The translations under genes and the position numbers were made by a program. Positions 3,071 to 63,270 of a stretch of 64,000 bases of DNA are shown here, one piece after another. The notes beneath the pieces were generated by a model. It searched no databases and was not told the origin of the DNA. It saw only the letters and a list, made by a program, of their open reading frames with translations. The stretch is from Eledone cirrhosa. Taxonomy: Eukaryota. Each line of letters begins with the position of its first letter. Position 1 is the stretch's first letter. Location: assembly GCA_964016885.1 (NCBI GenBank), contig OZ024753.1:27962001-28026000 (forward strand). Direction: 5' to 3'.

Positions 3071-3492
3071 ACAATATATTAATAAATGGAAACTATATTT
3101 ATAAAACCATATTTATTTTATTATATATATTTCAAGGGCAACCAAGGCAAATTATGGTGCACTTTCATCACATAAAATACAGATTTGTTTTATAAATAAA
3201 TATTAACATACGCGGAAAAAAAAAGTTTTTTTTTTGTTTTTTTTTTTGTTTTTTCCGGGTATGTCAATATTTATTTATAAAACAAATCTGTATTTTATCT
3301 GATGAAAGCGCACCATAATTTGCCTTGGTTGCTCTTGAAATATATATAATAAAATAAATATGGTTTTATAAATATAGTTTCCATTTATTAATATATTGTG
3401 TATTTACTCCACTAAACTGTTGAGTGCTTTATATCAGTTATAAAAAATGTTTAAGCTTGTTGAATCCCAACAAATTAAATATAACCTCTGCA
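3071..3492 (+). mobile_element. Fold-back hammerhead element (Penelope-like pLTR derivative)
   Basis: ~150-bp inverted arms (3071-~3220 / ~3250-3399) plus a unique tail; flanked by (TA)n; hammerhead in the right arm. Confidence 0.75.
3291..3356 (+). ncRNA. Type I hammerhead ribozyme
   Basis: TATTTTAT-CTGATGA-AAGCGCACCA...TGGTTGCTCTT-GAAA-TATATAT-A-ATAAAATA; 8-bp stem I. Confidence 0.8.
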
Positions 3493-3508
3493 TATATATA
3501 TATATATA

Positions 3509-4828
3509 CTAGCATTAAAGCCCGGCGTTGCTCGGGGTCATTAAGTTACCAAAGTTAGGTTGCACCACCCATTTTATGGCAGCACTTTTTTGTCTGCCAG
3601 GCACTGGGTGAATGAATTGCAAACCTGCGCCAGCAGTGACAATTGTAGTTTCGCCTATAGATATTATCTCTGTGCAAAAAGTGTTGAAATTTATTGTTTC
3701 ACAGTACTTGCACAACACGCGCGTAGACGATGCCAGCCGAACAACAGAGCTGCGATGGAGTTGTTCTGCATGGTTGTCTGTGTGTTTTCTAAATTTAAGA
3801 CAGTAGGGAGGGTTGTGATATGAGGGAGAGTTAGCTGTTGTTTCTAGCAGGTTTAGTGACCTCATAGAGGATATGTGTTTTCTAAATTTAAGACAGTAGG
3901 GAGTGGTGTGATATGGAGGAGAGTTAGTTGCTGTTTCTAGCAGGTTTAGTGACCTCATAGAAGATATGTTTTCTAAATTTAAGACAGTAGGGATGGGTGT
4001 GATATGGGGGAGAGTTAGCTTCTGTTTCTAGCAGGTTTAGTAACCTCATAGAGGATATGTGTTTTCTAAATTTAAGACAGTAGGGAGTGGTGTGATATGG
4101 AGGAGAGTTAGCTGCTGTTTCTAGCAGGTTTAGTGACCTCATAGAAGATATCTTTTCTAAATTTAAGACAGTAGGGAGGGGTGTGCTATGGGGGAGAGTT
4201 AGCTGCTGTTTCTAGCAGGTTTAGTGACTTCATAGAGGATATTATTGTTTATCATTATCTATAAAAGGCAGATTGTTGTTGTTGTTGTTGAAGTGAGTGT
4301 GTGTTTGTATGCGTTTGGAAAAGAGGTTTTAAAAAAGATTTATCGCTTGTTGTTGAATAAATGTATCTGTTGCTTTTGAATAATTGTCGTTTCGTATGAA
4401 ATGTAATAATTTGAAGTATAAAAGAGAAAGTAGCAAAATGTGTGGGTTGTAGATAGAGGTAAGCAGATGATATGACAGAGTAATACGGACAGTATCATCA
4501 TCAAGCTTGGAAAGAGAAAGTAGCAGAATGTATGAAGTTGTATAGATTTTGAATGGTAGTGGGAAGAGTTTAGCAGTTTAAATGACAGAGAAAAATCGTA
4601 AAATATTGAGTTTTATCTATTTTTTGCGTAATTGTGGGTGAAATTGAAAAAATGAGATGTGCCAAGACGCAATCGAAACTATTTCGAATACTGAATTGTA
4701 AATTTCAATTGAAGAAATTCTATATCGTAGATTTCTATAAGAAAGGAGCATGGCCACACACTGTATGTAATCATAGAGCCCTCTGTATGTAATCATAGAG
4801 GTAAATATACTATATAGTATAAAATAGA
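3509..4828 (-). mobile_element. Non-autonomous Helitron
   Basis: Minus strand ends CCCGAGCAACGCCGGG-N8-CTAG (3' hairpin plus CTAG) followed by T; candidate 5' TC start (A|TCTATTTTATACTATATA) at 4828; no TSD. Confidence 0.7.
3781..4241. repeat. Tandem array of five ~91-93 bp units inside the Helitron
   Basis: Unit TGTGTTTTCTAAATTTAAGACAGTAGGGA...GACCTCATAGA(G/A)GATA at ~3781, 3874, 3965, 4058, 4149. Confidence 0.95.
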
Positions 4829-5040
4829 TGGCAAACCAGCATACACCTTCTAAGGTATTCACAGTTTCCTGAGTTCCTCCGAGAAGGTATCTGTGTGTTT
4901 GCCATGTATTTCATACAATATAGTATGTATGTGTATATATATATATACTGTAGTATAAACTTTGGTATAAATATCCAAGGGTTTAGAGCACTCAGTCAAT
5001 AGGACGAGTTAAGTATAATTAGTTACAACAGTGACATGCA

Positions 5041-5087
5041 CAGGTACTTAGGTTTCGTTGGGTTGGTTATCCCAACTCATTCAGCTG
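5041..5087 (-). ncRNA. Degenerate type I hammerhead ribozyme
   Basis: Reverse complement: CAG-CTGAATGA-GTTGGG...CCCAAC-GAAA-CCTAAGT-A-CCTG; perfect 6-bp stem II; 1-nt insertion in the core. Confidence 0.5.
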
Positions 5088-6060
5088 GTCATTTTTTCTT
5101 TTTATGTCAAGGAAATGACAAAACAGAGGTACAAAAAGTCTTATTAGTTTCAAGCCTTATATGGAAAAGGGGAAAGGAACTTCGACATATCAGGCTTTAA
5201 CCCTTCTTCAGGAGTACAAAAATAGAGACAGAATATACAATGATATATATATATATGCGAGTGAGTGTGTGTATTTCTGTATGTGTGTGTATTTCTGTAT
5301 GTGTGTCTGTGTATATAGATAAATAGTCCAACCTATGCCAGCATGGAAAACAGATGTAAAATGATGATGATGATGAGATAGATAGATAGATAGATAGATA
5401 GATAGATAGATAGATAGATAGATAGATAGATAGATACATAATTATAGCTGCAGTAGGGAGAGAGAAAACATAGCAATAGTAAAGAGAAAGAACACTTTCT
5501 CATTAACAAGTGCTTCCTTTTTCTAGATGTGTTGAGTTCTAGAAACCTTGAGGAGAATGTGTGGTTGGAAGATATATCTATTGATGTATTTGACAGCTGT
5601 ACTCTCTCAATTGAAATTCACTTCAACCACCATGTATGCATGTATACTCATGTGTGTATATATATATATATGTGTGTGTGTGTGTGTGTGTGTGTGTGTA
5701 TATATATATATATAGTAAGTAATTGTCAAATATGAAAACAGGTAGGTGAAGAAATTTTAACAGCTCAAAAATATGAGATTTATTTCAATAAACTGTACAT
5801 AAGACTACATTCAATTTTTTAAAAAGCATGAAAGTTTATATATATACACGTAGAGCAAAAAAGTACATTGAAAATAAGACCAAATACTGTTAATTAAAAT
5901 AGGATAAAATTACCAGCATTTGGTCTTATTTTCAATATATATATATATATATATATATGCTACTAGTGCCTTGAGAAAATCAACACCAAATTTCAGCACG
6001 GAGCATATAAAAAAATCGAAATAACATCGTTATTTTTTTCTGTTTTTTCTGTTCAAATTC

Positions 6061-6127
6061 TAGCTGTCTGATGAGGTCATAGCTGTTGCATAATGCACCG
6101 AAATATATATATATATAACACCAACTA
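6061..6127 (+). ncRNA. Type I hammerhead ribozyme candidate
   Basis: TGT-CTGATGA-GGTCAT...ATGCACC-GAAA-(TA)6T-A-ACA; short stem I. Confidence 0.55.
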
Positions 6128-61406: not shown

Positions 61407-61518
61407 GTTATATATATATATAATATATATATATATTATATATATATTATATATATATATATATATATATATATATATATATATATATATATATATATAT
61501 ATATATAAATAAATATAT

Positions 61519-61766
61519 TAGGTGTCACGACAAAAAAACACACAGTCCAAGCTGTAAAGTGGCCGTGTAGGCAACACGGTAAAAACCTCCCAGTCCCACA
61601 CTGTAAATGTCGTTGGTGTTAGGAAGGGCATCCAGCTGTAGAAAACCCGCCAGACAGTCCTATGCGAGCAAGACAACCACTCTTGCCTCAAGTGGGGAAA
61701 ACTCCCGGCCAAACCCATGCAAGCGTGGAACATGGACGTTAATCGATGATGATGATGATGATGATG
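61519..61766 (+). mobile_element. 3'UTR-only fragment of RTE subfamily A
   Basis: Matches 41935-42180; (GAT)n tail. Confidence 0.88.
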
Positions 61767-62305
61767 CTTATATATATATATATATATATTATATATATAT
61801 ATATTATATATATTATATATATATATATTATATATATATATATATTATATATATATATATATATATATTATATATATATATATTATATATATATATATAT
61901 TATATTATATATATATATTATATTATATATATATATTATATATATATATATATATTATATTATATATATATATATATATTATATTATATATATATTATAT
62001 ATATATATATATATTATATATATATATATTATATATATATATATTATATATATTATATATATATATATATATATATTATATATATATATATATTATGTTT
62101 AATACAATAACAGAGAACGCTTTAAGCTAAACTCTGACTGGTAACCATCTCACTCAACAAACATTAGGTTATATGTTAGTATAATCCCAATTTAGTGTTT
62201 GGGGTGGTAACTATATGTATTTTGTGGAAAGCCAGTTGTATTATTTTATATGAGATATAATTAAAGTTAAAATATATCTCTCTTTCCAAAACAAATTGTT
62301 TCATA

Positions 62306-62505
62306 NNNNNNNNNNNNNNNNNNNNNNNNNNNNNNNNNNNNNNNNNNNNNNNNNNNNNNNNNNNNNNNNNNNNNNNNNNNNNNNNNNNNNNNNNNNNNNN
62401 NNNNNNNNNNNNNNNNNNNNNNNNNNNNNNNNNNNNNNNNNNNNNNNNNNNNNNNNNNNNNNNNNNNNNNNNNNNNNNNNNNNNNNNNNNNNNNNNNNNN
62501 NNNNN
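62306..62505. other. Assembly gap (200 N)
   Basis: Run of n. Confidence 1.
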
Positions 62506-62737
62506 AATACATTGCAGAGTATAAAAGTTTTAATATAGATGAGATTCTACAGGACTAGAACTGTTTTCATTCTTTAGAAATCATCAGGAATTGGGAGATT
62601 CCTGGATGATTTCTAATAGAATGAAACAGTTCTAGTCCTGTAGAATCTCATCGATATTAAAACTTTTATACTCTGCAATGTATTGAGTACCTTACTTACT
62701 GTGATTACCTCCGATTTCAACCCGGAATAACGTACTA
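62506..62737 (+). mobile_element. Fold-back hammerhead element adjacent to the assembly gap
   Basis: Inverted arms around ~62592; GAGATTC-CTG(G)ATGA-TTTCTAATAGAAT-GAAA-CAG...CTGT-A-GAATCTC at 62595-62649; the left arm reads canonical CTGATGA on the minus strand. Confidence 0.7.
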
Positions 62738-62889
62738 TAATATATATATATATATATTTATATATATTATATATATAATATATTATATATATATATATAT
62801 ATATATATATTTATATCTATATATTATATATATATATATTATATATATATATATATATATATAAATATATTATATATATATATATATAA

Positions 62890-63270
62890 TACAATATTAA
62901 ATAATGGAAAACTATATTTATAAAACCATATTATTTCATTATATATATTTCGGGGATATCATATTAACAATATGCTATGCCTTCATCAGACAAAATACAA
63001 TATAAACAGTTTTATAGATAAATATATTCGACATACCGAATATATTTATCTATAAAAACTGTTTATATTGTATTTTGTCTGATGAAGGCATAGCATATTG
63101 TTAATATGATATCCCCGAAATATATATAATGAAATAAATAATGGTTTTAAAATATAGTTTTCCATTTATTTAATATTGTAAATATACTCCAAATATTTGT
63201 CGAGTGCTTTCATATCAGTTATAAATATTTACTAGTTGTAACCCAACAAATTTTAAATATAACTTTACAT
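62890..63270 (+). mobile_element. Fold-back hammerhead element, same family as 3071-3492
   Basis: Arms ~62890-63030 / 63037-63180; hammerhead TATTTTGT-CTGATGA-...-GAAA-TATATAT-A-ATGAAATA at 63071-63136; tail homologous to 3400-3492. Confidence 0.78.

Follow-up and report, generated by a model that had tools for sequence, protein, structure and literature searches.

The sequence analysed here, called the window below, is a stretch of 64,000 nucleotides (nt) of the Eledone cirrhosa genome (assembly GCA_964016885.1, contig OZ024753.1, positions 27,962,001 to 28,026,000, forward strand). It contains short fold-back elements, referred to here as stubs, in which an inverted arm is followed by a direct arm and by a one-sided tail of ~65-135 nt, most of them carrying a type I hammerhead motif. 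Six of these had been located in an earlier note made from the letters alone, which read them as largely unrelated non-coding elements. Alignments of the arms confirmed the six fold-backs at those positions (3071, 31271, 55544, 57426, 62506 and 62890), together with the TA-rich sequence flanking them and the gap into which the left side of 62506 falls. However, 3071 and 62890 are copies of one family (82.6% over 149 nt), and five families, designated A to E, lie behind the six stubs:

3064..3492, + strand: family B stub; inverted short arm 3064-3220 with C3 of the core mutated; intact type I hammerhead 3291-3356 on the direct arm; hairpin of the tail (box) 3406-3425.
31271..31694, + strand: family A stub; inverted arm 31275-31425; hammerhead 31501-31571 on the direct arm and mirror copy 31373-31303 (- strand); box hairpin 31614-31638; tail end 31694.
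55544..55705, + strand: family E stub; 40-bp fold-back in which the hammerhead is limited to its 3' half; box hairpin 55633-55656; tail end 55705.
57426..57963, + strand: family C stub; perfect 199-bp arms; hammerhead on the + arm with core at 57631, stem II of ~115 nt and GUU site; long-loop box hairpin 57833-57913.
62506..62737, + strand: family D stub; fold-back whose two cores each contain a 1-nt insertion; box hairpin 62670-62688; left end in the gap.
62890..63270, + strand: family B stub; one hammerhead per arm (cores at 63079 on the + strand and 62989 on the - strand); box hairpin 63186-63205.

The arms pair at 150 of 151 positions in the 31271 fold-back (31275-31425 against 31449-31599), at 40 of 40 in 55544 (55544-55583 against 55588-55627) and at 199 of 199 in 57426 (57426-57624 against 57630-57828). 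Those of 3071 (3064-3220 against 3250-3406) are 95.5% alike, and in the fold-backs 62506-62684 and 62890-63180 the arms match apart from small indels.

Coding parents of the stubs

Both the listing of open reading frames (ORFs) and tblastn agreed with the earlier note in that the window lacks any ORF for the reverse transcriptase (RT) or the GIY-YIG endonuclease of a Penelope-like element (PLE). With five PLE proteins as queries, tblastn detected no PLE coding remnant in the window, its sole match being 36 codons of the family E tail, upstream of the start codon. The rest of the genome was then considered, and the 30 best loci of each family were inspected. First-look candidates, which are not copy numbers, amounted to 1,462 for A, 290 for B, 781 for C and 1,766 for D, and to 3,568 for E, which was searched via a longer copy.

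Coding partners were found for all five families. In family A, locus L161 is organized as pseudo-long terminal repeat (pLTR)-ORF-pLTR, with pLTRs 95-97% identical to the window copy, and a sister subfamily (88-92%) showed open frames of 818-821 aa at 6 of 6 loci chosen for long frames. A 751-aa ORF of L270 is followed on the same strand by a family B pLTR (88%), and a 93% copy of B is linked to a GIY-YIG ORF in L269. The family C pLTRs of L163 and L164 continue into ORFs of 826 and 834 aa, respectively, and the family D pLTR is joined to broken ORFs in L173 and L170. As for family E, all 15 loci chosen for long frames had ORFs of 770-859 aa, and the 55544 copy matches both pLTRs of L283, and likewise those of L291, at 100% identity. 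The open frames of A, B, C and E (751-859 aa) encode an RT followed, at the C terminus, by a GIY-YIG domain; in D this frame is broken. Proteins of the families share 37-52% pairwise identity. The distance between pLTRs is ~3.5-3.9 kb (L155, L161, L283 and L291), including a 3' untranslated region (UTR) of ~1 kb. A search with the RT core gave 43,685 first-look candidates, again not a copy number; 150 were scored, all with at least 85% identity.

The motifs of these proteins point to the Hydra clade of C-terminal endonuclease-positive PLEs, for which RW(K), DKT, CxCX5C, the lack of CCHH and CxxC plus CxH around E and N are described (Craig et al., 2021, PMC8557442). DKT (from DKG) is present in all five families. 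RW is followed by R in B, C, D and E and by I or T in A, never by the K of the RWK motif. The CxCX5C linker is found, CCHH is missing, CxxC and CxH surround the conserved E and N, and the alignment shows one cysteine in the GIY-YIG core. The flanks of stubs and genomic loci are (TA)n, the insertion target of this clade. RVT_1, HTH_animal and GIY-YIG are present in part of the members of the protein-atlas neighbours.

From these sequences, the six elements are almost certainly 5'-truncated pLTR ends of five protein-coding families of Hydra-clade PLEs. The Penelope-like origin, the several families, the type I hammerheads with palindromic stem III, the inverted 5'-truncated copies and the (TA)n targeting put forward in the earlier note were all borne out. 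Its proposal of ORF-less, retrozyme-like families mobilised in trans was not, as the pLTR of each family is continuous with an RT and GIY-YIG ORF at other loci, and therefore the window copies appear to be early-aborted insertions of autonomous elements.

Arm ends and formation of the fold-backs

Genomic copies have a fixed 3' end at (TA)n and a variable 5' extension into the ~1-kb UTR and the GIY-YIG ORF, and some read through the 3' end into the RT ORF. The truncation point differs from copy to copy, from tens of bases up to the whole ORF. Inverted arms end at a single fixed site in 10 of 11 cases in family A, 13 of 19 in B, 11 of 12 in C and 8 of 16 in D (30 loci in each family), and the long, direct arms end at a second fixed site, 65-135 nt beyond the first. 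Each of the five two-armed family E loci (L275-278 and L280) has one long and one short arm. In addition, both family A termini were recovered as (TA)n junctions in independent Illumina reads from another sample and study (113 and 2,327 reads, which, being restriction-site-associated DNA data, may come from few source molecules).

A model for these ends is offered by the Poseidon element of Anolis carolinensis, in which both strands are cut and extended in vitro and two internal starts of reverse transcription bound the tail (Frangieh et al., 2024, PMC11167929). By analogy, the enzyme of the Eledone elements would cut both DNA strands of (TA)n, internal priming would make cDNAs begin at the two fixed sites on opposite strands, and the two cDNAs, aborted early, would then be joined into a fold-back with a one-sided tail. 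We consider this two-site twin priming probable.

The same parents could also give rise to fold-backs by snap-back, in which a single cDNA (or the RNA), after folding back or changing template, is copied a second time, no two-site priming of both strands being needed. The arms are indeed often perfect copies with tiny or hairpin-like spacers, and short duplications or filler are found at some junctions. However, snap-back alone would not make the second arm halt at an internal site that is fixed and also serves direct copies as their 3' end, and the unequal long inverted arms of L270 and L275-278 span whole ORFs. This route is therefore unlikely, and two-site copying of truncated Hydra-clade pLTR ends is, taken as a whole, the best explanation of the stubs, to which we give a probability of about 0.8.

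The tail hairpin

A hairpin of the form ACUC-stem-loop-stem-bulge-GAGU, named here the box, occurs at seven sites of the window, all of them within stub tails, the corresponding figure for 40 shuffles being 0.55. Of the full-tail copies of six families, 71-98% contain it, compared with 2-19% of shuffled tails. In the six families tested (6/6) it starts 0-8 nt behind the end of the short arm, the exact base being blurred by the TA-rich sequence. The outer pairs covary (ACUC/GAGU, GCUC/GAGC and GUUC/GAAC) and the inner stems are wholly different among families. A second box, read from the sequences, follows the long end at 6-7 nt in copies of A, C and E that read through. Besides, a clear GCUC/GAGC box was recognised by eye in three of the six published novel Hydra consensi (Hydra-2_Amil, Hydra-1_Ajap and Hydra-2_Ajap).

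Position and covariation suggest that the box may be the signal placing each start of reverse transcription, a role that we favour slightly over its absence. The wider proposal is more tentative, with chances somewhat below even: a twin bulged hairpin (RYUC…GARY), from corals to cephalopods, would address the two internal reverse-transcription starts of Hydra-clade PLEs, one per DNA strand, the adjoining ribozyme being dispensable. If true, it would account for the long-unexplained insertions consisting of an inverted copy plus a tail. We found no description of the box hairpin, of these families or of the C3·A8 PLE lineage considered below in the literature, subscription papers and Repbase/Dfam lying outside the search.

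Hammerheads and the retrozyme alternative

A strict type I descriptor detected three window sites, against a mean of 0.04 in 50 dinucleotide shuffles, and a relaxed one, allowing a bulge or mismatch at stem II, recovered those of 57426 and 62890 missed by the former. By the relaxed descriptor, an intact hammerhead is present in four elements, on the + arm of 3071 and 57426 and on both arms of 31271 and 62890, and not in the five counted by the earlier note. In 62506 the core of each arm holds a 1-nt insertion, one intact form being common to 54 of 64 family D copies, and 55544 begins 3' of the core. Judged by structure, the cores are canonical in A, B, C, D and a further family, J, and are U3-A8 or C3·A8 in E. 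An Rfam scan of the window gave no hammerhead among its 113 matches at E<=1, which were microsatellite-driven miRNA models and tRNA-like heads of short interspersed elements (SINEs).

Folded as monomers in ViennaRNA, isolated hammerheads lacked stem III (probability <=0.03). Since this is expected for motifs of the dimer type, folding energy neither supports nor refutes them. Each whole fold-back was predicted as a single long hairpin in which the hammerheads are buried, so that the stubs are likely inert as ribozymes. The hammerheads are predicted to belong to the parent RNA and to be buried in any transcript through the stubs. At family D loci, a TATAAATA box lies ~30 nt upstream of the hammerhead and may mark an internal pLTR promoter; the D stub of the window does not have it.

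A different reading of the stubs is that they are ORF-less families, similar to retrozymes, spreading in trans via self-cleaved small or circular RNAs. It would fit the absence of an ORF from the window, and tandem hammerhead units of ~470-590 nt with no ORF seen nearby do occur in the genome (clusters 6, 7 and 12). Furthermore, a 2026 preprint argues for a pLTR origin of retrozymes (bioRxiv 10.64898/2026.07.22.740005), and re-mobilisation of some stubs is possible. However, a coding parent exists for every one of the five families, with identities of up to 100%, the stub lengths are continuous instead of unit-sized, and none of the six is a head-to-tail tandem. In addition, the single hairpin predicted for whole elements argues against a working ribozyme system here, and 55544 lacks a core altogether. 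The retrozyme-like reading is thus largely refuted and we regard it as very improbable. Finally, negligible weight is left for chimeric-read or assembly artefacts: although some arms are perfect, independent reads showed no bridging of the window-specific 31271 junction and the 1-nt indels of 62506 could be consensus errors, the family-specific fixed arm ends recur over many loci, the arms of old copies have diverged (~71% alike at 1480 and 95.5% at 3071) and the same structure is published, for instance for Penelope-13_HM.

Several results weigh against the explanation by two-site copying of Hydra-clade pLTR ends. The short-arm ends of family D are scattered, and an intact ORF of D was not found among the 12 loci fetched. 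No coding parent was seen for J (20 loci), nor for a family G or the small partial copies. Pfam gave no match for the three PLE fragments tried, and membership of the Hydra clade rests on motifs and on comparison by eye with Hydra-1_Obim and the supplement alignment. The published tail is 30-40 bp, shorter than the 65-135 nt measured here. Regarding the box, the descriptor behind its seven window sites was derived from these same families, the second box was not seen in the sole read-through copy of D (three of the four families with such copies show one), and only 6 of 22 held-out hammerhead clusters contain a box (1.7 expected), some of these clusters being probably false hammerheads or members of other clades. 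The family B hammerhead is in part favourable: over 40 distinct copies, 94% of cells were paired against 33-59% in slid controls, and both sides had changed in 7 of 20 pairs. The set was, however, made up of related members selected by a pairing descriptor, and its count of covarying pairs was not above that of shuffles (364 of 500).

Core variants of family E

Of 888 pattern matches to family E cores, the first 100 in the list were tallied: 58 were U3-A8, 38 C3·A8, 3 U3·G8 and 1 other, and none was canonical. In the genome, one C3·A8 form gave 365 exact matches, compared with 28 for its U3-A8 counterpart. Those E elements that are youngest and intact, of the subfamily of the window copy, carry U3-A8, a known active hammerhead covariant replacing C3-G8 (PMC3088659; in Schistosoma PLEs, PMC4209133). 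The C3·A8 mismatch of a large sub-lineage is predicted to cripple the hammerhead. The adjoining ribozyme was proposed above as dispensable because the lineage with this broken core has spread to hundreds of copies. The natural U3-A8 versus C3·A8 series lends itself to testing whether the spread of PLEs depends on their hammerheads. In the three U3·G8 cores, the change of A8 to G would be consistent with A-to-G editing of an RNA that retrotransposition then fixed, or with simple mutation. U3-A8 cores recur in further unrelated families (L168, L065, L066, L086 and L091, of clusters 9, 10, 26, 29 and 39).

Other repeats of the window and the genome

Six further stubs or remnants were identified:

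47606..47732, + strand: family J solo stub; hammerhead reduced to its 3' half; GCUC/GAGC box 47672-47692.
31955..32092, + strand: stub of an older family E subfamily, 81% identical to the 55544 copy over 70 nt.
4950..5110, - strand: family G stub; core damaged; box hairpin 5009-4990.
1473..1712, + strand: old decayed fold-back; arms ~71% alike; hammerhead-like core at 1590.
6000..6100, + strand: hammerhead fragment; core at 6068, continuing into (TA)n; one relative among the fetched loci.
62094..62306, - strand: tail, cut by the gap, of a further hammerhead-bearing family; missing from the list of the earlier note.

The 12 stubs of the 64 kb represent ~1 per 5.3 kb, in line with the one element per 5-6 kb estimated previously. 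Of the partial copies proposed in that note, those at 1480, 5041, 6061, 31981 and 47600 stood and the one at 24260 did not. The latter has no CUGANGA core and no match among the fetched loci, and sits downstream of a fragment of a long interspersed element (LINE) with a restriction-like endonuclease, of which it may be the 3' UTR. This fragment (24831-25310, - strand) is a 159-aa open stretch with an RPDIVV / PD..D/E motif and no Pfam match; the motif resembles the restriction-like endonuclease of R4/Dong/R2-type LINEs.

Young RTE-type LINE copies encoding an RT and a PHD-like finger were also observed (39844-41787, 46072-47301, 47690-49195, 49246-51609, 52244-55338 and 59065-61407), several of them 5'-truncated at (TA)n. 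A short inverted pair with a TA-rich spacer (2080-2116 / 2297-2326) matches 16 fetched loci and probably represents the tip of the tail of a further family that targets (TA)n. Tandem arrays occupy 3781-4242 (91-93 nt, 5 copies) and 35000-35506 (36 nt, 14 copies). Elsewhere in the genome, L265, L177, L038 and L168 (clusters 6, 12, 7 and 9) contain hammerhead units spaced ~470-590 nt with no ORF seen nearby and are retrozyme-like candidates; the GUUC/GAAC form of the box is found in clusters 7 and 12. At L016, L042, L093, L169 and L171 there is another type of PLE, whose GIY-YIG core has two cysteines (Neptune/Nematis-like by motif) and which is frequently nested together with Hydra copies in shared (TA)n tracts.

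Comparison with known systems

The inverted 5'-truncated copy, the one-sided tail, the (TA)n target and the hammerhead are all already published for PLEs, the Hydra clade included (PMC8557442). The elements of the window are ordinary for this clade, and the proposal of a new non-coding system is accordingly not supported: the families are new, but their clade and their form of insertion are both known. The box and the family E core series are modest, testable additions. The origin of inverted, tailed PLE insertions is named as an open task (PMC8557442), and the young intact family E elements, together with a covarying candidate start signal, make it testable. Such stubs probably figure in cephalopod annotations under a wrong label, as unknown repeats or SINEs, and, if transcribed, would be expected to yield long double-stranded RNA.

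With the Hydra clade (PMC8557442), the families share a single ORF with RT and C-terminal GIY-YIG, the clade motifs, the (TA)n targets, the inverted 5'-truncated copy at the 5' end and a sense-strand type I hammerhead close to the 3' end, whose cleavage site often follows A or U. Among the elements of its supplement are Hydra-1_Obim of Octopus bimaculoides, which prefers (TA)n and has a hammerhead, and Penelope-13_HM, which has a truncated copy in inverted orientation. In contrast, five or more families are new here and none contains, by eye, the Hydra-1_Obim hammerhead. Their ~3.5-3.9 kb exceeds the length of generally <3 kb given for the clade, a descriptive and non-diagnostic trait, and they are far more abundant than the "small number" of families published. 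The long stem II of C and E, the U3-A8 core of E and the tail boxes are unmentioned in the sections of PMC8557442 used for this comparison. U3-A8 itself is common to family E and to the variant of PMC3088659 and PMC4209133, but the C3·A8 sub-lineage of E breaks the pair.

Metazoan non-LTR retrozymes (Cervera and de la Pena, 2020, PMC7229834; Li et al., 2026, bioRxiv 10.64898/2026.07.22.740005) are likewise short, non-coding at the locus, PLE-related and provided with a type I hammerhead. However, they are head-to-tail tandems of fixed 150-450-nt units expressed as circular RNAs (PMC7229834), whereas the stubs are inverted, of variable length and derived from coding elements, without tandem arrangement or a non-coding family behind them.

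The PAc/Poseidon element of Anolis carolinensis resembles the families described here in its two internal termini around an optional tail, its AT-rich target, its hammerhead just 5' of the ORF start and a stem-loop at the start region (PMC11167929). It belongs to another clade, and its stem-loop is described as AC-rich and lying within the ORF, whereas in the Eledone families a bulged RCUC/GAGY hairpin stands behind each terminus, in the 5' leader.

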